Source: a phage. Taken from it: a stretch of DNA of 64,000 bases. A program made the translations under genes and the position numbers. The notes below the pieces were generated by a model, which was given only the letters and a program-made list of their open reading frames with translations, was not told where the DNA came from and searched no databases. Shown here piece after piece: positions 4,345 to 62,633 of this stretch (its first letter is position 1; every line of letters begins with the position of its first letter). Location of the stretch: sequence record PZ496580.1, one strand, 5' to 3'.

Positions 4345-4578
4345 TTATTTTCCTTCTGGGATATAGTCGATGATTAAAGAAAATTCATCTTCTGATACAT
4401 TATAGCTATGTGAGATTGTACCCGTAAAGACCTCAAGGTCCGGTGATTTGATATTGCACGGATCGATAATCACCGGAACGCCGCAATCTCTCAAAAATAA
4501 TTTGGCGAAATACGGCACAAGGTCAGTTTCAAACTCTGCTTCTTCCAGCAAACGGGAAATGTTAATTTTCAATCTCAT
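4345..4578 (-). CDS. hypothetical protein (77 aa)
   Basis: ORF overlapping gene 55 3' end by 17 nt. Confidence 0.4.
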
Positions 4579-5095
4579 AAAATTGGTCCAGGCTAGGCAA
4601 TTCCTCGGTCAATACATCTTCAACCTTTGGCGCTTTCGGTTTATTGACCGATTCCTCGTAGTTGTTGATTTTATCGTAAATGTCCTGTATGAATGCCTCA
4701 TCCGCAATCTGGCACATATCAGCGTCGCGTTCGTCATATACATGATGCACAAAATATTTGTATTTTGCGGCGGTTGCTGTTCTTTCTTTTTTAATGCGCT
4801 GTACAAAGGCATTAAAGCACGCTTGCGTAATGTAAGCATGAGGATTTTTATACTTTGTCTCGTCAAAATTAATCAAACCCTTGACCGCCGCTTCGATTCC
4901 ATCGTCGATCATTTCTTCGCGCCACGTTTGACTATAGCCAGAAAAGTTAAAACGCCGTGATAGATTTTTAGAGATTTGCATAATTGCTAGGCCGATTTGG
5001 TCGCTCATTGGCACTTGTCGACCTTCGGCTGCAATTCGTTGTTTCCAACGGCAAATTTCTTCGTAAAGCTCTTTATTGTTTACATAATCAGACAC
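4562..5095 (-). CDS. 55: late-transcription sigma factor gp55
   Basis: YVNNKEL...IGLAIM...[10 protein letters not shown]...[23 protein letters not shown]...FIQDIYDK nearly collinear with T4 gp55; GTG start at 5095 with GAGGG Shine-Dalgarno. Confidence 0.9.
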
Positions 5096-5135
5096 TTCGC
5101 ACCCTCGCTATTATTTAGGAAATAACCCTTTCGGG

Positions 5136-6605
5136 CTATTCCCCATTACCATTATACTTTCTTTGCTTAGTTATCCACACTCTAACCATCTCTACAGATT
5201 CGCCGTCAGACGGATCAAGAGTTTTTCCTTTTTTCTTCATGCGGTACTTAAATCCGTTAAATCTTGCATTCTCTTGCTCGTTAAAGTCGAACATCTTTTT
5301 AAATGATTTTCGCCCTTTACGCTCACCGCATTCTAGAGGAATCATTCGGTCTGTTATTACATTGGCATTAGGTAGAAACGTTTTTAGATAATCTACCAAC
5401 GCCCAATCAGGAACATATAGATTAACATTCTCCTTGCTCTCGTTGTCTCTCAGGTTACAACGCAAACATAATTGAAATGCTGGTTCCAGATAATCAGACA
5501 CATGACGCGCTTTCAAAAACTCGTTTGTTGGGAGATCGCAACTATTAGCAAGACCTTTTAAAATATCAATCTCCCATCGTTGAGGGTTAAAGCTGAACAT
5601 CACAGCAACATTTTTATGATGAATGTAAGAGTTAAGACCATAAGATCCGTAAGGTATCCGCTCACCAATACCATTTGTGCACGCTTCTCGGTCCCGATTC
5701 ACGGTATAAATGAAGTCATCACCACATTCATTTTTAACCATATCAACAAGACGTTCAAAGGTATTGTTTGTTTCTGACTGGTGACGCGACCATCGTTCAG
5801 AGTCCGTCATAAGGATGATATTAACTCTATCTGTATTTTTATACTCTTTGAAATATAGTCTGGATTCTAGCGCACTCGGAACAAAATCACAATTTGCATA
5901 GTATCGTAGATACTTCCCACTATATGTATCAAAGAGATTTGCACATGCTATCGTAACCTTTTTAAAGTCTCCCCACGTACCGTGTTTGTTATCGTTCAAG
6001 AAAACAATTTTCGACCCATTCTTCCGGTGGCCTTCGTTATGTTTTACCATAACGTTGATTTTCTTCTCTAATAACGCCTCATAAAGCCCTCTAAGAGAAG
6101 AATCGATCATATCAGTACCATCCTTTGCACTTTCTATCTTTTCTTTGATAGCGGCCTTCTCAGAGTCTTTTAGAACTAAGTTCTGTAGGCATTCCGATTC
6201 GTCGGCGATTGGTTCGCAATGCTTCGTGATAAGTTCAAGATTAGACTTAAACGGATACTCATTAAATTCAACCAGTTGAGGAACTTCATCAATGTAAAGA
6301 GCATAATCACCAAACATTTTTGAACGTTCCATATTAGATAACGCTGTATGTGTAATGAATATCACATCAGCACCATCTTTAACTGATTGCATTATCGACG
6401 CTTGCACTGTCTTAAGGCTTCTTAGTCTTGTGCTATCAATCAAGACAGCACGACCGCCCATTCTTTTAAACTTATTGTAAGATTGTTCACTTAAAACACG
6501 AGATGGCGAAGCAATAACCGCTTTTTCTTTTGTCTCTAGGACGTGGGAAAGTATAGCATCAGTTTTCCCCGCCGCTGGCAATGCGATTAATGTTTCAATC
6601 TTCAT
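5136..6605 (-). CDS. P-loop NTPase, helicase-like N-terminal domain (489 aa), function unknown
   Basis: Walker A LPAAGKT, helicase motif Ia-like SPSRVLSEQ, Walker B LYIDEV; C-terminal Cys cluster CLRCN; ATG at 6605 overlaps stop of upstream ORF (TAATG). Confidence 0.6.
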   Translation of the reverse strand: MKIETLIALPAAGKTDAILSHVLETKEKAVIASPSRVLSEQSYNKFKRMGGRAVLIDSTRLRSLKTVQASIMQSVKDGADVIFITHTALSNMERSKMFGDYALYIDEVPQLVEFNEYPFKSNLELITKHCEPIADESECLQNLVLKDSEKAAIKEKIESAKDGTDMIDSSLRGLYEALLEKKINVMVKHNEGHRKNGSKIVFLNDNKHGTWGDFKKVTIACANLFDTYSGKYLRYYANCDFVPSALESRLYFKEYKNTDRVNIILMTDSERWSRHQSETNNTFERLVDMVKNECGDDFIYTVNRDREACTNGIGERIPYGSYGLNSYIHHKNVAVMFSFNPQRWEIDILKGLANSCDLPTNEFLKARHVSDYLEPAFQLCLRCNLRDNESKENVNLYVPDWALVDYLKTFLPNANVITDRMIPLECGERKGRKSFKKMFDFNEQENARFNGFKYRMKKKGKTLDPSDGESVEMVRVWITKQRKYNGNGE

Positions 6606-7834: not shown

Positions 7835-8636
7835 TCAAAAATTCAACTTCACGACGTTTAATGTCTTCTTGAAGGTCTTTAATCTTCTGTCGATCTTGCA
7901 TGATTTCGTCCATCTTGTCAAGTGCTGCAATGAAATCATCGAAACGTTCAAAGGTTTTACCTTCATTTGCTTCGCTAAATTTAACCATAGTCAGACCGTA
8001 ACGACTACTAAACAGACGTTTCAACTGTCCAACGATCTTAGAATCAGTGGTTATAACTTCCAATTCTTCTACTTCTTGAAAGAATTTTCTATCAGAATCA
8101 ATAAACCAGCTAGTTCCTTTATGGTCTCTATCTCCGGTTGCGCTCATTAGAGTATGGTCTTTACCATCAATTTCAATTACATCAATTTGCCCACATGGAC
8201 TAACATTTTTAACAGTAAAAGGTCTATAATTTATTGCTCGTGCAATAACATAATTAAGGTTAGATACGTTTTCAGCATAATGGCAGAAGTCGGTCATAGC
8301 CTTCGCATCTTTCCAAGTATAAGTTTTACCAACTTCCCATTTCTGGGGAACTTCTTCAACTTCACGAAAGAATTTTCTATCGAATGGACTAAAGAAATAT
8401 GTTGCAGTCCAAATGTCTTTTCCTGTAGCAGTTTTCGCCGTATGATAAACACCGTCTAGCTCTATTGCATTAATCCAACCGTTACCCTCGATCTCGATGA
8501 TGGTAAATGGCTTGTCACCAATAGCTGCACTAATATCGCTGTTAAGTGGAGAAAGAACACCTTCTCCGTTAGTAATAAACTCAGTTTTAGCGTTTTCATC
8601 TTTCCAAGTGTAAGTTTTACCAATTTCCCATTTCAT
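7812..8636 (-). CDS. paralog-family protein, two tandem family-A domains plus coiled-coil tail
   Basis: Internal duplication KWEIGKTYTWKDENAKTEF... and KWEVGKTYTWKDAKAMTDF..., each ending FDRKFF.EVEE. Confidence 0.6.
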   Translation of the reverse strand: MKWEIGKTYTWKDENAKTEFITNGEGVLSPLNSDISAAIGDKPFTIIEIEGNGWINAIELDGVYHTAKTATGKDIWTATYFFSPFDRKFFREVEEVPQKWEVGKTYTWKDAKAMTDFCHYAENVSNLNYVIARAINYRPFTVKNVSPCGQIDVIEIDGKDHTLMSATGDRDHKGTSWFIDSDRKFFQEVEELEVITTDSKIVGQLKRLFSSRYGLTMVKFSEANEGKTFERFDDFIAALDKMDEIMQDRQKIKDLQEDIKRREVEFLIGKERGW

Positions 8637-8648
8637 AATATATTCCCC

Positions 8649-9128
8649 TTAACCGATTTTATCAAGTTCGTTTAATGCTTTCTCTGCTTCCTGTATAGCT
8701 TGCACCCTTTCCGGCATTTTGTCAAGAAAATCTTTCAACTCTTCAAAACTGGAGATATGACGCAAGGCATTAGCACCGATAGCCGCATGTGATTTGCATT
8801 CAAAGCGAATTTTATAATTATCCATCGCCAACTTGAGAAGATCAATTAGTTTAGATTCTTCTGGAATAATAATTTCTTCAAATCTGCTACGGTCGTGATC
8901 CAGAAACCAACAAGATAGACCTACATCGGTTGAACTCATATAAGTTCCATCATGAAGATATACAGATCGCACGTATCCTTTTTTCGCATCAACCGACGCA
9001 ACTTTAAACGGTAATCTCAGATATTTCAAATAATCAACATCATACCATTTAAAAAATTGGTTTGCATCTTTTACATCTTTCCACGCATAGGTCTTACCAG
9101 CTTCCCATTTCATAATATCATCTCTCAT
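8649..9128 (-). CDS. paralog-family protein (family A)
   Basis: N-terminus MKWEAGKTYAWKDVKD...; WFLDHDRSRFEE; C-terminal helical tail. Confidence 0.55.
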   Translation of the reverse strand: MRDDIMKWEAGKTYAWKDVKDANQFFKWYDVDYLKYLRLPFKVASVDAKKGYVRSVYLHDGTYMSSTDVGLSCWFLDHDRSRFEEIIIPEESKLIDLLKLAMDNYKIRFECKSHAAIGANALRHISSFEELKDFLDKMPERVQAIQEAEKALNELDKIG

Positions 9129-9666
9129 TTTTGATACGTGATTCTAATTGGATCATACGGTCGCGCGTTTGCTTGTATTCGCGGATAGCACCGATACGGC
9201 TAGGCATACCATTTAGAACGCTCTTAATACCTTCTAGGGTAGTAATTTTAGCAATGCTATTATGTAACCCCATCTTATCGATTAACTGAATATCGTAGGC
9301 TTCCATAAGCAGACCCAGACGTTCTAAGGTTAAATCTTGTTCTTTATCTTCTTCCTTTTCTTCCGGTTCTGGGATTTCTTTGTTAATAGTAGCTTCGGTA
9401 AAGAAACGACGCTCACCTGCCCAAAACCACACACCGGAAAAGCCAATAGGGGATTCTTTTAACGTCATAGAGTCGTAACCACTGCCGATAATAGTAATTT
9501 CTCTAACATCACCATCATCGTCAATGTCTTCTACCCTAAACGGGCGACCAGCCAACAAGTCCACAATACATCTGTTAATAGACGACGAAAATTTAGTCAG
9601 TTCGGCTTTCGACGCTTCGCATTCAATCTTGTAAGTTTTACCAACTTCCCATTCCATAATAATCAC
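9118..9666 (-). CDS. paralog-family protein (family A)
   Basis: MEWEVGKTYK...GRPFRVEDI...WFWAGERRFFTE; acidic linker and coiled-coil tail. Confidence 0.55.
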   Translation of the reverse strand: MIIMEWEVGKTYKIECEASKAELTKFSSSINRCIVDLLAGRPFRVEDIDDDGDVREITIIGSGYDSMTLKESPIGFSGVWFWAGERRFFTEATINKEIPEPEEKEEDKEQDLTLERLGLLMEAYDIQLIDKMGLHNSIAKITTLEGIKSVLNGMPSRIGAIREYKQTRDRMIQLESRIKNER

Positions 9667-9667
9667 C

Positions 9668-10171
9668 TCAAATAATTTTCACTGGAATACTATTAACAAT
9701 CTTGTATTGTACTTGATTGTCGGACCCCCGCCACGGCTTCTTCGTTGGCATATCTTTAATATAACGCCCATCGATGAACATGTCAACCGATTCTACAATT
9801 TTTCTTTGCTCATCATTCAATTGGTCAAGGGTATAACCAGACCATAGCCAAATATCTTTATTTGGCATCCATGATTTTACTTCATCGATGATCCGCTGTA
9901 CACCCTTTAAATTGCGTTTATACAGTGGATCGCCACCTAAGAATGTTAGCCCCTGAATAAAATCAGGTCTAAGCAGATCCAGAATCAATCCCATTGTATC
10001 ATCAGTGAATGGTTCCCCGTTCTTAGGATTGAGTAGGCTAGCATTAAAGCAACCATCACATGCGTGTGAACATCCGGTAACGTAAAGGGAGACTCTCACT
10101 CCCTCACCGTTAACCATATCACAATCTTTAATATCGGCATAGCGTAGTTTGCCGTATGTATCAGAACTCAT
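9668..10171 (-). CDS. nrdG: anaerobic ribonucleotide reductase activating protein NrdG (radical SAM)
   Basis: Cys cluster GCSHACDGC (CxxxCxxC) near N-terminus; size about 167 aa; adjacent to nrdD; track start 10177 is TTG, first ATG at 10171. Confidence 0.85.
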   Translation of the reverse strand: MSSDTYGKLRYADIKDCDMVNGEGVRVSLYVTGCSHACDGCFNASLLNPKNGEPFTDDTMGLILDLLRPDFIQGLTFLGGDPLYKRNLKGVQRIIDEVKSWMPNKDIWLWSGYTLDQLNDEQRKIVESVDMFIDGRYIKDMPTKKPWRGSDNQVQYKIVNSIPVKII

Positions 10172-11509: not shown

Positions 11510-11537
11510 ATTATACATTAGCTAATCAGGTTGTCAA
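11510..11537 (-). promoter_or_regulatory. sigma70-type early promoter
   Basis: TTGACA(11532-11537)-16-TATAAT(11510-11515), just downstream of nrdD terminator. Confidence 0.6.
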
Positions 11538-14007: not shown

Positions 14008-14041
14008 GGGAGTATTATAGCATACTCCCTTTGCATGTCAA
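14008..14041 (-). promoter_or_regulatory. sigma70-type early promoter with hairpin across -10 (PeSL-like)
   Basis: TTGACA(14036-14041)-16-TATAAT(14014-14019); 8-bp inverted repeat gggagtat/atactccc (14008-14015/14022-14029). Confidence 0.6.
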
Positions 14042-16980: not shown

Positions 16981-17793
16981 TCAATCTACGTTAGTTACAT
17001 AAACTTCTTGCGTATCAGAAGACTTGCCACCTGAACGATCTAGGCAATAGGTCTTATTCAACAGGACGCAGTTTAAATCGTTCCGCTTGATAAAGTCAAG
17101 AAGATGATCATTTACCTTTCCCTTATGATGTGTGACATTACTGATACCAAACTGAAAACCACGCGCCATAATAGATTCTACCCACTGATAGAATTTAATC
17201 TCTTCCTCGTCACTCCAGAACTTATTATATTCCGCAGAAGTGATAAGGTACGGCGGGTCCAAATAAACGAAATCACCTGGCAAGATCTCGATCTCGTCAT
17301 ATCGTCCAGAAGTAAAATTGATTCGACCGTCTTTGTTTTCTTCTTTAAAATTCAGGACACGCTCTACCGCGTTTTCGTTAAAAGTCCGGCGACCAAAGTT
17401 AGCATTAAATTCGCCCTTCCGGTTATGGCGGTTAATGTTGCTAAAACTATGCTGAATCAACACAAACAGAGATAGCGGATCTGGATTCTCGTTATACTTC
17501 TTGCGGAATGCCATATAAGAATCTTTATCATCACGAGACAAACCATTCTCGGCAATAATCCGCTTGATCGTAGAAACCGGATCAGGACACTCGTCAATCG
17601 CTTTGTACGCGTCAATTAAGCGGTGATCATAGTCATTAGCCAGCACATCCCCTTCGACGTACAGAGACACGCTCAAGCCGCCACAAAAGGCATCAACAAA
17701 GCGGTTATAGTGCTTAGGGAAATACTTACTAACACCAGGCAATAACTTTTCCTTATTGCCCGTATAGGGAATTAAACCTAATGCTTTCTTCAT
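16981..17793 (-). CDS. dam: DNA adenine methyltransferase Dam (alpha class)
   Basis: IPYTGNK, FVDAFCGGLSVS (motif I), DFVYLDPPY (motif IV), YNKFWSDEEE; collinear with T4 Dam; ATG at 17793. Confidence 0.88.
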   Translation of the reverse strand: MKKALGLIPYTGNKEKLLPGVSKYFPKHYNRFVDAFCGGLSVSLYVEGDVLANDYDHRLIDAYKAIDECPDPVSTIKRIIAENGLSRDDKDSYMAFRKKYNENPDPLSLFVLIQHSFSNINRHNRKGEFNANFGRRTFNENAVERVLNFKEENKDGRINFTSGRYDEIEILPGDFVYLDPPYLITSAEYNKFWSDEEEIKFYQWVESIMARGFQFGISNVTHHKGKVNDHLLDFIKRNDLNCVLLNKTYCLDRSGGKSSDTQEVYVTNVD

Positions 17794-19379: not shown

Positions 19380-19414
19380 GCGGTTATTATATGATAACCG
19401 CATTTTCATGTCAA
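19380..19414 (-). promoter_or_regulatory. sigma70-type early promoter with hairpin across -10 (PeSL-like)
   Basis: TTGACA(19409-19414)-17-TATAAT(19386-19391); 8-bp inverted repeat gcggttat/ataaccgc. Confidence 0.6.
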
Positions 19415-22351: not shown

Positions 22352-22379
22352 ATTATAGCATTGTGATTATCTTTGTCAA
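22352..22379 (-). promoter_or_regulatory. sigma70-type early promoter
   Basis: TTGACA(22374-22379)-16-TATAAT(22352-22357). Confidence 0.6.
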
Positions 22380-51700: not shown

Positions 51701-51810
51701 CGGCGGTAACATTCTCTATGTTCCGTGAACTTGTAGATAAACGGTTGAAGGATAATATAGGGAATCCACGCGATCCGAAGAATCCGACACAGAGGAAAAT
51801 TAATGGCTAA
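48724..51810 (+). CDS. 7: baseplate wedge protein gp7
   Basis: 1028 aa (T4 gp7 1032 aa) between genes 6 and 8. Confidence 0.8.
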   Translation: MIKAPSVTSLTIEKLSANQAYITWDDVGENFFYFVELAETRTRDGEIIPVDELSWVNLGYTADQNWFEDKNLFPEYYYKFRVAVAAEGFEQSKWVETEEFQTFKTNAYNFSMMREFNLANEFIKEKFTYDNREYVKFNTDLIQASLMKEDFVFSPEYANMTNISNYIVVDENFHEIQDHIEKVCTDINRTMLAEMNGVLYLFERFQPIVKVSNDKGQSWKAYKAFNDRVGNPVSRTCVYQSKTTTYVLGYDRIFYGRQASDTRWSADDVRFSDDTITFAKVGDENDLGFDVEVFGVFSRLTGDTTKYAEAMACSDDYLWVGAKDVIRRIRLKNTPVDTVQGSPTFGEKIFDPDVIRVTGNDKAVIQKMDVIDGKLLVFVTGEVKQRYQDPTKPENVVPSDDAGVYLIGSDGLSFQRVFGNTPQEREYIQHGFSNMSTNGDEVFISHYNHHFESILPDPETAAKYELSEAVKYSQEPTYLTDKKIHQTTFRASYDDLRIWELGPQAYYNEADYTWMRRNGVRVWITNDNRPLVVYPEVIYTQEVDTSGILDQNRVNREVYDKGTVTCYLNNVKFEGFKQYASGVMFHKNTGEIIGFYQFNYRVRDQVGVYWKPTNVAFVAELQNQVREVPWVPVHYDREQDPDLRPLLNKMTPDSFLLENENFRKFSEYYLQFLSDGSGTYYNKLKNLIKNKYPREQDAYEYLWSEMNKRNIYADKNKRDAVVRFFESRKSDFYSTKGVEASYKFLFKLLYNEDVEIEVESQAGLEYDIVVSSTNIDEDIVGRTIYTQTGRANVTYLEREYEGGRLRWRVTIHNLIGRFEEGQVIKSEKTAFEGMILVGVRGKELLSSSIDYINRSRSQYTMKIKSALPVSRYANDVMRFVHPVGFGFIGVTLLTMFINSGLSMKHTETIIQSLKNYKFDSGLPSVYPDRVADLDVDGNIKKDPLTGKALYLTSPLIGDEFPVPPEYDQENSELFHGLKASERRFAMSPLFDQSAVTFSMFRELVDKRLKDNIGNPRDPKNPTQRKING

Positions 51811-52798
51811 TGAAAATAGTGTGATCTATCGCTCAATCATTACTAGTAAATTCAGAACGGAAAAACTTCTGAATTTCTATAATTCTGTAGGCGATGGGGC
51901 AAATCAAATTACAATTTATGGAACGTTTGGACGTTCGGAGCCGTGGTCAGAAAACGAAAAAGAGGTGGGCTTTGCCCCACCTTATCCAACCGACTCAACG
52001 GCTGGCGTTGTTGATATGTGGACCCATATGATGGGGGCGGTTAAGATTAACAAATCACTTCTTGATGCGGTTATCCCTCGTAAAGATTGGGGTGATACCG
52101 GACAGGATAACCCGCGCACGTTCTTTATCAATGACATTGTTGTCGTAAACTCAGCACCATATAACCGTACAGATGTTGGTAGCGGCTGGATGGTGTATCG
52201 CGTAACCGATGTTCCTGATCGCGGTTACTGCTCGATTTCAAGCATTGACGCTAAAGTAGAGTGTTTGAAGCTGGGCGGAAAGTGGACACCTACTCATGAA
52301 TCAATCGCGCCACCTGTAGGAAAGGGCGATTCTATTGATATGGGTGATGGGTATCGTTGGGAATATCTGTACACAATTCCACCTGATGCGGCGATCAACC
52401 GTTGCACCAATGAACATATTGTTGTTCCATTCCCAGATGAATTGAGACAAGATCCGGCGCGTTGGGGATATGATAATGTGATCACCTGGTATAATGACTA
52501 TAATCTGCTTTATCGGCTGAAAGTAGTAACTTTGCGTTTTCAGGCTTATATGGACTCAGCGCAATTCCCAACTACCGCGTTAGTGGGTAATACTGGCTTC
52601 CGTCAGTTAAGCATTATCCTTAACCCATTGGAAAAGAAAGCACGCCCTAGCGATCCAGATGTTAAAGCGGTTAAAGATAAGTACCGTCCGCAAGACTTAG
52701 AGCCACACTCAGGAGAAATGATCTACATGGAAAACCGACAACCTATCGTTCGGTCATTAGATCAAACAGAACTTGTTTCTGTATTGTTTGAGTTCTAA
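51803..52798 (+). CDS. 8: baseplate wedge protein gp8
   Basis: SVIYRSIITSKFRTEKLLNFYNS...GRSEPWSENEKEVGFAPPYPTDS...EMIYMENRQPI collinear with T4 gp8. Confidence 0.88.
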   Translation: MANENSVIYRSIITSKFRTEKLLNFYNSVGDGANQITIYGTFGRSEPWSENEKEVGFAPPYPTDSTAGVVDMWTHMMGAVKINKSLLDAVIPRKDWGDTGQDNPRTFFINDIVVVNSAPYNRTDVGSGWMVYRVTDVPDRGYCSISSIDAKVECLKLGGKWTPTHESIAPPVGKGDSIDMGDGYRWEYLYTIPPDAAINRCTNEHIVVPFPDELRQDPARWGYDNVITWYNDYNLLYRLKVVTLRFQAYMDSAQFPTTALVGNTGFRQLSIILNPLEKKARPSDPDVKAVKDKYRPQDLEPHSGEMIYMENRQPIVRSLDQTELVSVLFEF

Positions 52799-52810
52799 GT
52801 GTATGATTTA

Positions 52811-52840
52811 AAAGCCAATTCGAGAGAGTTGGCTTTTTCC
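52811..52840 (+). terminator. rho-independent terminator after gene 8
   Basis: 7-bp stem aagccaa/ttggctt followed by T5. Confidence 0.55.
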
Positions 52841-52850
52841 ATTTTGGGGG

Positions 52851-52878
52851 TTGACAATCTTGTCTGATAAGGTATAAT
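52851..52878 (+). promoter_or_regulatory. near-consensus sigma70 promoter driving the inserted 3-gene cassette
   Basis: TTGACA(52851-52856)-16-TATAAT(52873-52878); GGAGG Shine-Dalgarno and ATG at 52908. Confidence 0.65.
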
Positions 52879-52907
52879 GCTCACATCTAAACAACGGAGG
52901 ATAAATT

Positions 52908-53165
52908 ATGGCACGTCGTAAATTTACAGATAATTGTGAAGCAATTCAGGTATCCCCTTGCGGTTGGGATGTGATCGCGAACGGTGAAAAGATCGGAGAG
53001 ATCATCGATCATACTCATTCATCACTAGCCGATTACACCGATGAACTATGGGAGGGTATTAATTGCGCTAACGTAACCAAACGATTCAAGACTATTGATG
53101 AAGCTATACATTTTGTGTATAATCCAACTTTCGGTATGTGGAGTGATAGAAAATGGCACGCGTAA
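52908..53165 (+). CDS. hypothetical protein (85 aa), first gene of inserted cassette
   Basis: ATG at 52908 with GGAGG, 30 nt downstream of sigma70-like promoter. Confidence 0.5.
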   Translation: MARRKFTDNCEAIQVSPCGWDVIANGEKIGEIIDHTHSSLADYTDELWEGINCANVTKRFKTIDEAIHFVYNPTFGMWSDRKWHA

Positions 53166-53482
53166 ATATTAAACTGCATTATACAATGGGTAAACCAAAA
53201 CATCCAATGTATAAAGTGTTTTGGGGCTTGCATCTTCAAGAAAAATGGCACGATAACTATTGGTTTTGTGACCATGATAAGAAGTGGCATTCTCAAGATG
53301 AAGTTAATGCGATGATGGAACAGGGTATCAAATTTAATTACTCTAATTATGACCATAGCATTACTTGTATTCGAAAATTAAAACGGTTTATTCGAAAGAA
53401 TCCGCAATTTAAAAACTTTGTGTTCTTTATGTCTCATGTTTATTTGGGGCATAGCGTTACCGTAACAGCAAAGGTTAAATAA
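53153..53482 (+). CDS. hypothetical His/Trp-rich protein (109 aa)
   Basis: Overlaps upstream ORF by 13 nt. Confidence 0.5.
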   Translation: MARVNIKLHYTMGKPKHPMYKVFWGLHLQEKWHDNYWFCDHDKKWHSQDEVNAMMEQGIKFNYSNYDHSITCIRKLKRFIRKNPQFKNFVFFMSHVYLGHSVTVTAKVK

Positions 53483-54321
53483 TGGCACGACTTTCTAAAC
53501 AAGAACAAAAATTACACGATCGAGCAATGGAGTTGATTAATTCAGATCGTCCATTGACCTATGAAGAAAAAGAATTTTGCTATAACAACTATCAGGGCGA
53601 TGGTCTAGGTGGTTCCGGTGCATTCTTTACCCCAGAAGGTCTTGCATGGGATTTTACCATCGATGCACATTGCACAGGAAAAGTATTAGATCTTTGTGCT
53701 GGGATCGGTCGCTTATCTTTTTGTATGTTACATCGTTGTAAGCCAGAAAAGATCGTATGCGTCGAACTCAATCCAGAATTTGCGCGTATAGGTAAACGAC
53801 TATTACCGGAAGCAGAATGGATCACCAGCGATGTATTCGAATTTGAGTCAAACGAAAAATTCGATGTGGTGATCAGCAATCCACCTTTCGGGAAAATCAA
53901 TACAACCGACACAAAGGATGTATTTGAGTACACTGGCGGCGAATTTGAATTTAAGGTTATGACATTAGGCCAGAAGTTTGCCGATGTAGGTTATTTTATT
54001 GTTCCTGTTGGTTCCGCTGGTTTTGCCTATTCCGGTAGACCTTATTATGACGGGACCATGAAGTCTAATAAATATCTAAAATGGAGCAAACAAACTGGTT
54101 TGGTGACTTATGCCGGATGTGGGATCGATACATCAATCTATCGCGATGAATGGCATAGTACCAACGTTTTAACAGAAGTGGTTGAGGTTCGGTATTACGA
54201 GAAAGAAGCCGTAGAAGCGCCTAAATCGCGTCCTAACGAACAAATAGAAGAAAGTAAGGAGATTACCTTACCGAAACAGGAAAGCGAGTCTGGGACACTC
54301 TCAGATTTGTTTGACATTTAA
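53482..54321 (+). CDS. SAM-dependent methyltransferase (NPPF motif; probable N6-adenine or amino-group MTase)
   Basis: FFTPEGLAWDF (motif X-like), VLDLCAGIGRLS (motif I), VVISNPPFG (motif IV), order X-I-IV; 279 aa; followed by terminator 54326-54351. Confidence 0.65.
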   Translation: MARLSKQEQKLHDRAMELINSDRPLTYEEKEFCYNNYQGDGLGGSGAFFTPEGLAWDFTIDAHCTGKVLDLCAGIGRLSFCMLHRCKPEKIVCVELNPEFARIGKRLLPEAEWITSDVFEFESNEKFDVVISNPPFGKINTTDTKDVFEYTGGEFEFKVMTLGQKFADVGYFIVPVGSAGFAYSGRPYYDGTMKSNKYLKWSKQTGLVTYAGCGIDTSIYRDEWHSTNVLTEVVEVRYYEKEAVEAPKSRPNEQIEESKEITLPKQESESGTLSDLFDI

Positions 54322-54325
54322 TTAT

Positions 54326-54351
54326 AAGCCGTCCTTGTGGGCGGCTTTTTT
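54326..54351 (+). terminator. rho-independent terminator after the methyltransferase gene
   Basis: Stem aagccg/cggctt with inner pairs, then T6. Confidence 0.55.
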
Positions 54352-54361
54352 GTATGTATTT

Positions 54362-54369
54362 TATAAATA
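54362..54369 (+). promoter_or_regulatory. T4-type late promoter for gene 9
   Basis: Exact TATAAATA about 28 nt upstream of the gene 9 ATG. Confidence 0.6.
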
Positions 54370-54396
54370 ATACACCATAACATGAGGAATTAAACA

Positions 54397-55251
54397 ATGG
54401 CACAAGTTCCAAAGAAAAGAATAGACACAGGTACTGTCGGCAATCCATCGACTGGCGATATCTTATATGATGGCGGTAATAAAATTAACGATAACTTTGA
54501 TTCAATATATGACGCATTTGCTGATCAGCGGTTTAAAGACGTAGACCACGGCGTAGGAAGAATGGTTATTCATGCAACCGGATACTATCAGAAACATCCA
54601 CGTCAAAGCTACGCTGGTTCCGCTGTTGAGATTGGGAGTCTACACGATATCGATACAACTCAAGGCGCACTTATTGCTATTCTACCTAAAGCAAAGGTTG
54701 GTGAGGGTGTTGTATTCATAAATAGTAACGGTAGCCTTTCAACGACGACACCGCTCAATATTCGAACTCAAGCAGGTGATTCTATTAGCGGGTATTCCGG
54801 TGATGCTACAATAACACAACCATTTTCAAAAGTCACTGTTTGGTGTACTGCCGTTGAAGGTAGTCGCGTAACATGGCGATTGGGTATCGAAAGTATGTTT
54901 ACCGATACAACAACGCCATTAGATAAAACAGTTAACGTAACTGGAGTAGCAACAAACGTTGCTATTGCCGCAAAAACAGAATACGTTTCCATCAAATTAT
55001 TAACTACCGCTAGCAATACATCCGGTTCAAAAATGCGTTCAAGTGAAACGCTACTGATGATTGATTCTAAAGCCGGAAAAGTTTATGCGACGGAATATGC
55101 AGTTTTGCAGAAGACAGAAGATGAACTATACACGGTTCGTTATTTCATCGGTTCCGGCGATAAAGTATATGCAGAGTATAAGGCTACTGGCGAAAATATT
55201 CGTTTAGCAGTTAAAGCCGTAGACACTATTAAAATCGGGGTTGCTACATGA
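54397..55251 (+). CDS. 9: baseplate wedge / long tail fibre socket protein gp9
   Basis: KKRIDTGTVGNPSTGDILYDGGNKINDNFDSIYDAFADQR...IHATGYYQKH collinear with T4 gp9; TATAAATA late promoter at 54362-54369. Confidence 0.9.
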   Translation: MAQVPKKRIDTGTVGNPSTGDILYDGGNKINDNFDSIYDAFADQRFKDVDHGVGRMVIHATGYYQKHPRQSYAGSAVEIGSLHDIDTTQGALIAILPKAKVGEGVVFINSNGSLSTTTPLNIRTQAGDSISGYSGDATITQPFSKVTVWCTAVEGSRVTWRLGIESMFTDTTTPLDKTVNVTGVATNVAIAAKTEYVSIKLLTTASNTSGSKMRSSETLLMIDSKAGKVYATEYAVLQKTEDELYTVRYFIGSGDKVYAEYKATGENIRLAVKAVDTIKIGVAT

Positions 55252-61892: not shown

Positions 61893-62633
61893 ATGTTTAA
61901 CAACACTCTTTTTGCTCGCCTTGAATCGCAAAAGGATTATGAGAATACACGACAAACAGAGATTCTCAATCCTTATGTGAACTTTCACAAATATACAAAT
62001 ACTCAGACGTTAGCCGACGTTATGGTCGCAGAAGCTATCCAGATGCGAGGTGTAGAATTATATTACATCCCTCGTGAATTTGTCAAGCCAGATATGATCT
62101 TTGGTGAAGATGTTCAAAGCAAATTCACTAAAGCATGGAAATTTGCGGCTTATATTAACTCGTTTGATGGTTATGAAGGTGCGGGTAATTTCTTCTCTAG
62201 TTTCGGGTATCAAGCTAATGATGAATTAACTTTTACGGTTAACCCCAACCTATTCAAGCATCAAGTAGATGATCAAGAGCCAAAATCAGGTGACTTGATT
62301 TATATTCCAATGAGTAATGATCTTTTTGAAATCAATTACGTCGAGCCATATCAGCCGTTTTTTCAGGCTGGCAAAAATGCCATGCGTAAAATTATTGCAG
62401 AGAAATTCGTGTATAGCGGTGAGGAATTGCGACCAGAATTACAACGCAATGAGGGAATTAATGTTGATGAGTTCGCGGATCTGGATCTTGCACCGATCAC
62501 TAATCTGGACGGGTTAACAGATATCAACTTAGATCAGTACAAAGAAGATAAGCAATTCAGAAGCGAAGGACAAGATTTTATTGACCCATTTGATCCTATT
62601 AATGGCAAGGGTTCACCTTTCGCCGATTTTTGA
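61893..62633 (+). CDS. 14: neck protein gp14
   Basis: 246 aa following gene 13 as in T4. Confidence 0.75.

Follow-up and report, generated by a model that had tools for sequence, protein, structure and literature searches.

The 64,000-nt stretch of PZ496580.1 analyzed here (the window; coordinates are positions in it unless another genome or a locus number is named) derives from a Krischvirus, that is, an RB49/GEC-3S-like T4-type phage, and carries a 1.6-kb unit between the baseplate genes 8 and 9 that encodes two small proteins and a 279-amino acid (aa) methyltransferase (MTase). The left flank is gene 8 (51803-52798, + strand), the baseplate wedge subunit, which matches Pfam Phage-Gp8 with an E-value of 1e-143 and has the same annotation in GEC-3S and RB49, and the right flank is gene 9 (54397-55251, +), the baseplate tail-fibre connector (Pfam T4_gp9_10_N, E 1e-40). 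Between them follow, in order and all on the + strand, a stem-loop terminator, a promoter, three overlapping open reading frames (ORFs), a second terminator and the TATAAATA late promoter of gene 9. An earlier annotation made from the letters alone (the sequence-only reading) had described this arrangement, and the observation is confirmed since each element that it listed was found in place, including the overlaps of 13 nt and 1 nt (TAATG) that link the ORFs of 85, 109 and 279 aa. Its view of the unit as an insertion relative to T4 also holds, as only 63 bp separate genes 8 and 9 in T4. In a megablast search 59 phage records matched positions 52400-54800 at 90-97% identity, all of them RB49-like/Krischvirus, with GEC-3S as the top match (97.3%); the position between genes 8 and 9 is confined to Krischvirus and close relatives and is not a general property of T4-like genomes. 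The phage additionally encodes Dam, as had been proposed, at 16984-17793 on the - strand (tblastn with RB49 Dam, 98.5% identity). Given its own promoter and terminator, its non-structural cargo and a site that is empty in T4, we class the unit as a moron-like cassette that is accessory to Krischvirus genomes. The cassette is already annotated in public genomes (~59), as hypothetical proteins and a "DNA methyltransferase", and its RB49 MTase, RB49ORF143w, was given a weak methyltransferase Pfam match in 2006 (PMC1524935).

The regulatory elements that bound the cassette are well defined. The first terminator (52810-52837, +) consists of a 12-bp stem-loop (-16.6 kcal/mol, z -4.7) and a T-run, and is annotated as a terminator in GEC-3S; its position and the GGCTTTTT run are kept in RB49, GEC-3S and two metagenomic loci, L092 and L095. 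It is predicted to terminate the late transcription of gene 8 and to supply the stem-loop half of the promoter element that follows. This promoter (52851-52878, +), likewise annotated in GEC-3S, is of the early sigma70 type, with a -35 hexamer TTGACA at 52851-52856, a 16-nt spacer and a -10 hexamer TATAAT at 52873-52878, followed downstream by GGAGG and then ATG. It had been described as near-consensus; the TTGACA-16-TATAAT structure is indeed present, but the hexamers are perfect (12/12 positions) and only the spacer, at 16 rather than 17 nt, departs from consensus. The -35 hexamer is unchanged in five related loci. The second, intrinsic terminator of the cassette (54326-54347, +) has a 9-bp GC-rich stem followed by T6 (-15.9 kcal/mol, z -5.1) and is annotated in GEC-3S, and an equivalent arrangement follows the MTase gene in L092. 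The T4-type late promoter of gene 9, TATAAATA, was read directly at 54362-54369 (+) and is also found in L092. The independent regulation that had been claimed for the cassette is therefore borne out by a sigma70-type promoter and a terminator, and the GEC-3S record marks the two elements in the same way. Six perfect TTGACA/TATAAT promoters were seen in the window against 0.12 expected, and of these only that of the cassette belongs to the + (late-gene) strand. The remaining five (TTGACA-N15-18-TATAAT) map to the - (early-gene) strand, at 11510-11537, 14014-14041, 19386-19414, 22352-22379 and 62057-62086, and are probably further early promoters or promoters of the class considered next.

The combination of promoter and stem-loop, whose significance the sequence-only reading had missed, fits the PeSL (promoter-early stem-loop) elements of RB49 and phi1, in which a sigma70 early promoter close to consensus is joined to a stem-loop with terminator function (Arbiol et al. 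2010, PMC2839356). PeSLs come after the stop codon of one gene and before the Shine-Dalgarno sequence of the next, drive non-core ORFs and "prevent inappropriate spill-over" to the late genes of the virion, and one of their five subclasses places the stem-loop upstream of the -35 hexamer (PMC2839356). PeSLs within the conserved core go with plastic, non-essential adaptive genes (Comeau et al. 2014, PMC4122927). The cassette has a near-perfect intergenic sigma70 promoter between the stop codon of gene 8 and a Shine-Dalgarno sequence and start codon, together with a stable adjoining stem-loop that, as in the subclass mentioned above, is upstream of the -35 hexamer, at a distance of 13 nt. Two differences should be pointed out: the stem of the cassette has the form A4GCCAA...TTGGCT5, whereas typical RB49/phi1 stems are polyG/polyC, and the cassette copy is located within a block of virion genes rather than in a hyperplastic region. 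Because the stem is not of the polyG/polyC kind, and because the part in recombination known for PeSLs would apply here only by analogy, we refer to the 5' end of the cassette as a PeSL-type element rather than as a proven PeSL.

The MTase gene (53482-54321, +) encodes a predicted N6-adenine amino-MTase core (aa 1-~238), followed by a linker and a tail of the clamp-binding type. The motifs that had been reported for the core, X-I-IV and NPPF, were verified: motif X is GAFFTP (aa 46-51; 53617-53634), the S-adenosylmethionine (SAM)-binding loop of motif I is LCAGIG (aa 71-76; 53692-53709) and the catalytic motif IV is NPPFG (aa 133-137; 53878-53892). All three are invariant in 22 homologues, which disposes of the possibility that the SAM-binding residues would be missing on alignment. 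The order of the motifs is X-I-IV, with the FxTP-type motif X ahead of motif I, and an AlphaFold2 (AF2) model has a Rossmann strand-helix pattern around motif I and a small family-specific subdomain at residues ~150-238. The fold of the predicted structure is closest to N6-adenine MTases. Curated profiles gave a mixed picture: the protein scored above the cutoff for Pfam Eco57I (27.4 versus 25.3 bits) and for a generic MTS profile (38.6 versus 23 bits) but below that for Pfam N6_Mtase, and its PHROG family is labelled "DNA methyltransferase". Gamma-class DNA adenine MTases typically combine GxFFTP with NPPF in the order X-I-IV. Based on its motifs and fold the protein probably has a gamma-type N6-adenine MTase core, with DNA as its presumed substrate.

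An alternative is that the enzyme methylates RNA (N6-methyladenine/N2-methylguanine (m6A/m2G) in rRNA, as for METTL5 or RsmC) or protein (as for PrmC), and so remodels host translation, with the tail serving another purpose. This would accord with the top PDB sequence matches, which are PH1948 and RsmC, with PrmC being the best NCBIfam match, and with public records, several of which in GenBank read "release factor glutamine methyltransferase", while RB49 carries the note "similar to rRNA guanine-N2-methyltransferase". However, all NCBIfam matches of the MTase fall far short of their cutoffs. The PrmC identity was rejected at 37.6 bits against a cutoff of 199.1 for TIGR03534, with the match spanning only the generic Rossmann/NPP segment (aa 64-137), and the RsmC identity at 29 bits against 295. 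The type and order of the motifs also argue against an RNA or protein substrate, and the clamp-type tails, replication-module position and neighboring DNA MTase described below suit a DNA enzyme. As such, we consider a role in translation to be rather unlikely.

Beyond the core the protein has an acidic linker (aa 239-271; 54196-54294), predicted to be disordered, which is variable and is absent from bacterial and prophage homologues, and then ends with the octapeptide TLSDLFDI (54295-54318), a putative peptide for binding the gp45 sliding clamp that resembles the C-terminus of the DNA polymerase gp43. Residues 251-279 are disordered in the AF2 model, with a predicted local distance difference test (pLDDT) of ~40, and the linker is rich in Pro and Glu in phage versions of the MTase. 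The MTase of the window ends ...ESGTLSDLFDI, followed by the stop codon, and RB49 gp43 ends ...KVASLTDLFDI, such that six of the eight terminal positions (TLSDLFDI versus SLTDLFDI) are the same and the last five residues are identical. The T4 counterparts that align with the end of RB49 gp43 are gp43 itself (...EEKASLDFLFG) and gp55 (...SPSLDFLYEAND). To rank this similarity, the last eight residues of the MTase were compared with 762 ORFs covering the Krischvirus genome: gp43 was the best match with a BLOSUM score of 32 (self-score 39), DNA ligase was next at 24, and all others scored 14 or less. The octapeptide is also invariant within the genus, as among 20 distinct Krischvirus MTases the numbers of variable sites were 30/238 in the core, 13/33 in the linker and 0/8 in the octapeptide. 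Selection on a short linear motif would be expected to leave just such a pattern, a variable linker followed by a fixed octapeptide.

The known clamp ligands of T4-type phages provide a precedent for such a tail. In T4 the ligands are the C-termini of gp43, gp33 and gp55, and these tails are interchangeable, are carried on variable flexible linkers and use shared sites on gp45; a crystal of the RB69 clamp in complex with the last 11 residues of the RB69 polymerase has been obtained (PMC2988020). The MTase has the same features, namely a short hydrophobic and acidic extreme C-terminus, likeness to gp43 and a flexible variable linker. That the MTase tail reproduces the clamp-binding peptide of the polymerase had not been noticed in the sequence-only reading. 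The DNA ligase that ranked second, RB49 gp30 (L007 4126-5622, - strand), ends ...TTANTVKEVFDV, which may be another clamp-binding peptide.

To place the tail in the context of the wider family, a family alignment was used to scan IMG/VR, which yielded 80 loci that fall into four groups. The first comprises the Krischvirus loci, in which the tail is TL(S/T)DLFDI. The second comprises nine T4-like loci (RB43, RB16, KP15 or Phynn type), in which the MTase gene is located between those of the helicase gp41 and the primase gp61. All nine of these MTases end (S/N)(D/E)LF(T/D)F(T/R)IE, and the corresponding gp43 proteins end SLSDLFDF, SLNDLFGDW or SLNTLFGDDW. Strict covariation, by which the MTase tail in RB43 or Phynn would equal that of the cognate gp43, was considered and rejected: the core is common to both, but the MTases have an extra (R/T/V)IE. 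Since these tails are not equal to the gp43 tail, only a similarity of class is claimed outside Krischvirus. The third group is made up of Rhizobium phage RHph_TM3_3_14B and of GC-rich contigs 40-66 kb long, and its tails (QLSLFGDAA, QLDLFGMAA, QASLFGDAA, QADLFGVAA and similar) follow the pattern Q(L/A)(S/D)LFGxAA, which corresponds to the consensus QL(S/D)LF of ligands of the bacterial beta clamp (PMC9690074). Twelve of the group 3 loci, as well as RHph_TM3_3_14B, encode a DnaN beta clamp at a distance of 10 kb or less, amid helicase and primase genes, and in the Rhizobium phage the MTase gene adjoins that of another DNA MTase as well as the helicase, primase and DnaN genes. The fourth group consists of prophage copies of the MTase without a tail. 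Bacterial and prophage homologues are 53-61% identical, have lengths of 236-243 aa and stop directly after the catalytic domain with no linker.

A clear partition between tail type and clamp type was apparent from these data. In the 21 loci for which the clamp or replisome could be read, the tail type tracked the clamp type perfectly (9/9 and 12/12), and 29 of 37 MTases, as compared with only 3 of 2356 other ORFs of the same loci, had a loose beta-motif within their 12 C-terminal residues. These results bear on a further alternative, that the likeness of the tail to gp43 is chance or low-complexity noise in an extension without function. The motif is indeed just eight residues long, and acidic, hydrophobic C-termini are common. 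Against this, gp43 topped the 762 ORFs by a wide margin, the octapeptide is unvarying beside a highly variable linker, beta-clamp motifs occur independently in the distant homologues at the frequency given above, and the partition by tail and clamp type is without exception in the 21 loci, so that we regard coincidence as extremely improbable. We lean, by a small degree, toward the broader proposal that a widespread family of phage adenine MTases has repeatedly acquired C-terminal clamp-binding peptides matched to the clamp that replicates the phage, these being of the gp45 type in T4-like phages and of the QLxLF beta type in phages that encode DnaN.

Several additional observations were made on the loci of this family. 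Tail-less homologues are very common in the chromosomes of Citrobacter, Enterobacter, Salmonella and Klebsiella (L002-L005 8001-8717; L014 10001-10726), where they are found at the extreme end of ~30-kb lambdoid-type prophages beside tail-tip, lysozyme and GIY-YIG genes. In RHph_TM3_3_14B (L091) the C-terminal tails of three neighboring replication-module proteins (4559-6310, 8204-9001 and 9001-9840) all contain the residues AANDN, these proteins being the MTase (...LAANDNSPQLSLFGDAA), the adjoining second DNA methylase (...PASLFAANDNVASVQEAA) and the helicase (...AAANDNLADWEWDDEVPF). AANDN is also present in many of the group 3 MTase tails from IMG/VR and may represent a second linear motif. 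Lastly, a 78-aa ORF of a DnaN-type viral contig (L073 2100-2336) ends ...QAAQLELFS and is one of just three non-MTase ORFs with a beta-clamp-like motif at the C-terminus.

Taken together, the product of the cassette is probably, though by no means certainly, an early-expressed DNA adenine MTase that is tethered to the sliding clamp and methylates phage DNA during replication. According to this model, the PeSL-type early sigma70 promoter would switch the cassette on, and the terminators on both sides would insulate it from the late baseplate operon. The flexible acidic linker (~30-40 residues) would then present TLSDLFDI in the way that the gp43 peptide docks on gp45 in T4 and RB69, allowing the MTase to travel on gp45 clamps, whether these are at replication forks or have been left in their wake, and to methylate adenines in nascent phage DNA as it is made. 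The benefit would presumably be that progeny DNA is shielded from host restriction. Such a role fits with the absence from the RB49 annotation of gene 42 (dCMP hydroxymethylase) and of alpha- and beta-glucosyltransferase genes, that is, of the genes for hydroxymethylcytosine and its glucosylation, and with the position of the MTase gene in the replication cluster of other T4-like phages. It is also in keeping with RB49 being without MotA and middle promoters (PMC1524935).

Some of our results weigh against a clamp-tethered DNA MTase. With respect to the substrate, the match to Pfam N6_Mtase was below the cutoff (16.8 versus 20.4 bits), and the MTase has no obvious large target-recognition domain. 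The protein is a SAM-dependent amino-MTase, but neither the profile searches nor the fold split DNA from rRNA N6-adenine MTases, as METTL5 and PH1948 score no lower than the DNA enzymes. With respect to the tail, the last 14 nt of the MTase gene (TGTTTGACATTTAA; 54308-54321) are identical to the 3' end of gene 43 (L006 15793-15806), an identity that may stem from copying of a segment instead of from selection acting independently. Only these 14 nt are the same; further upstream the two genes use different codons for the residues that their tails share, and the tail may have originated either as a copy of the 3' end of gene 43 or by convergence. Outside Krischvirus the T4-like tails resemble those of the cognate gp43 without being identical and are longer by the three residues (R/T/V)IE. 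Finally, Aeromonas phages, phiM7 and GAP32, which have their own clamp, encode homologues with little or no tail, and the Morganella phage Mm5 MTase has a different tail despite a clamp of its own. Since there are clamp-encoding phages with untailed or differently tailed homologues, tethering cannot be universal in this family.

We also considered that the tail binds the clamp for the purpose of regulation, by competing with gp43, gp33 or gp55 on gp45 and thereby modulating how polymerases exchange or when late transcription begins, with methylation being secondary. The near identity of the MTase and gp43 tails is compatible with such a role, as is the fact that the clamp-binding tails of T4 are interchangeable and have common sites on gp45 (PMC2988020). 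However, the catalytic motifs are invariant across homologues, and because tail-less homologues are common it is enzyme activity, and not the tail, that appears to be the conserved function. Moreover, the same enzyme has beta-clamp motifs in unrelated phages, which points to delivery onto DNA. A primarily regulatory tail is thus very unlikely, and we retain the tethered DNA MTase as the favored explanation.

The closest functional parallel of which we are aware is eukaryotic. In a review of sliding clamps, Dnmt1 is the only clamp-bound methyltransferase, and it acts through PCNA (PMC9690074). Dnmt1 and, by prediction, the cassette enzyme are both DNA MTases with a short linear clamp motif that brings about delivery to newly replicated DNA (PMC9690074). 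In other respects they differ, as Dnmt1 is a large C5-cytosine maintenance enzyme whose PCNA-interacting (PIP) box is internal, in the N-terminal region, whereas the cassette enzyme is a 279-aa protein of the N6-adenine type with a motif at the extreme C-terminus that would be aimed at gp45 (or, in homologues, at the beta clamp), and there is no homology between the two. The tail itself is most like those of the gp45 ligands gp43, gp33 and gp55, an extreme C-terminal hydrophobic and acidic peptide behind a variable flexible linker, but gp45 is known to bind the polymerase, the clamp loader and the late sigma factor with its co-activator, and no MTase figures among the ligands listed in the reviews consulted (PMC2988020, PMC9690074). 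Similarly, the tails of the distant MTase homologues (QLSLFGDAA and others) are like the QL(S/D)LF motif of beta-clamp partners such as Pol II/III/IV/V, MutS/L and Hda, although the MTase of the window is itself without a beta-type motif, and no MTase was found among the bacterial beta-clamp partners in the literature searched. More generally, no prior report of a clamp-bound phage or bacterial MTase was found in that literature, the coverage of which was incomplete, making this weak evidence of absence.

Among MTases, the cassette enzyme can be compared with T4 and RB49 Dam in being a stand-alone phage N6-adenine MTase with no cognate nuclease and a presumed anti-restriction role. Dam, however, is a GATC enzyme of another family without a clamp tail (RB49 Dam ends ...VYVTNVD), whereas the cassette enzyme is gamma-type (X-I-IV, NPPF) with a putative tethering tail. 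The small N6-adenine MTases of the METTL5/PH1948/lmo1582 type are only 14-24% identical and have no clamp-binding tail, and METTL5 differs further in being an rRNA enzyme that depends on TRMT112. A third annotated Krischvirus "DNA methyltransferase", RB49p189 (238 aa, FPPC motif; L101 39891-40607, - strand; RB49 115890-116606), is unrelated to the cassette MTase and has no clamp-type tail.

Neither the cassette, with its promoter and terminators, nor the concept of PeSLs is new; what is new is an MTase family with tails that are matched to the clamp. If the model is correct, it would represent the first instance, as far as the literature searched shows, of replication-coupled DNA methylation by clamp tethering in a prokaryotic or viral system, making the enzyme a functional analogue of Dnmt1-PCNA and extending the "toolbelts" of gp45 and the beta clamp to MTases, a type of client not previously counted among them. 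Orphan phage MTases are usually viewed as freely diffusing anti-restriction enzymes, and tethering would explain how a lytic phage that produces genome copies by the hundred within minutes could maintain methylation of its nascent, otherwise unmodified DNA. The correspondence of tail type with clamp type would additionally provide a simple sequence rule for spotting replisome-associated phage enzymes. There are also practical consequences, as RB49-like phages serve in phage therapy and their equipment for evading restriction bears on host range. In addition, our results correct the public annotation of the MTase as a "release factor glutamine methyltransferase" and recast the small ORFs upstream of it as swappable cargo behind the PeSL-type element, rather than as partners of the enzyme.

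These small ORFs are ORF1 (52908-53165, +; 85 aa, phrog_16603), which overlaps ORF2 by 13 nt, and ORF2 (53153-53482, +; 109 aa, phrog_12630), which overlaps the MTase gene by 1 nt. Both are orphan genes, for which Pfam, NCBIfam and PHROG yielded no function, and word-indexed and exhaustive HMMER searches found no relatives of them beyond Krischvirus and rV5-like phages. The AF2 model of ORF2 was of low confidence (pLDDT 56) and too poor for a fold search. The relatives in the rV5-like phages FV3, FFH2 and HMD-6 have ~70% identity, and the two ORFs occur there as a pair with an identical 13-nt overlap. No MTase homologue follows the pair in HMD-6, and the rV5-like phages that have the pair have none of this MTase.

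The sequence-only reading had treated the three genes as one module with two partner proteins. On such a view the two small products, one with Cys residues and the other rich in His and Trp, would be specificity, regulatory or anti-restriction partners of the MTase. The frames do overlap under one promoter and one terminator, and all three genes are kept in ~59 Krischvirus genomes. The evidence from relatives, however, does not support the proposal of obligate partners. As described, the ORF1-ORF2 pair exists in rV5-like phages without the MTase and, conversely, the MTase exists without the pair. In L092, a metagenomic Krischvirus relative, there is no small ORF, and gp8 is followed by the stem-loop, TTGACA-16-TATAAT, the MTase, the terminator, TATAAATA and gp9; in L095, also metagenomic, an unrelated 154-aa ORF precedes the MTase in place of ORF1 and ORF2. 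The neighbors of the MTase are also different in RB43, Phynn and Mm5, where it lies between genes 41 (helicase) and 61 (primase), and the upstream ORFs in RB43 and Phynn are, like the 154-aa ORF of L095, unrelated to ORF1 or ORF2. In the RB49 reference ORF1 is annotated as two short coding sequences of 51 and 32 aa (L099 603-849; RB49 73902-74148), which is due to a frameshift or else to an error in sequencing, and the split suggests that ORF1 may be dispensable. Lastly, ORF2 has two alleles in Krischvirus, with ~98% versus ~73% aa identity (window 53153-53482; L010 3756-4330), while the flanking ORF1 and MTase remain >92% identical (96-99% for the MTase). This pattern is indicative of a local mosaic replacement.

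In view of these findings it is unlikely that the three genes form a single functional module. The cargo between the PeSL-type element and the MTase varies among relatives (none, the 154-aa ORF, or ORF1 and ORF2), which would give indirect support to recombinational shuffling or mini-circle formation of the kind known for PeSLs, and the PeSL-type element, MTase, terminator and late promoter are kept in relatives that do not have the small ORFs. Since the small ORFs are separable from the MTase in this way, the conserved core of the insertion is the PeSL-type element, the MTase and the terminator, with ORF1 and ORF2 most readily seen as exchangeable cargo. One minor feature is common to the genes of the cassette: all three ORFs start ATGGCACG (Met-Ala-Arg; 52908, 53153 and 53482), and gene 9 starts ATGGCACAA (54397). 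In the MTase, the N-terminus MA(K/R)(L/I)(T/S)K is kept across the family; for ORF1, ORF2 and gene 9, the ATGGCACG and ATGGCACAA starts may reflect a preference in translation initiation.

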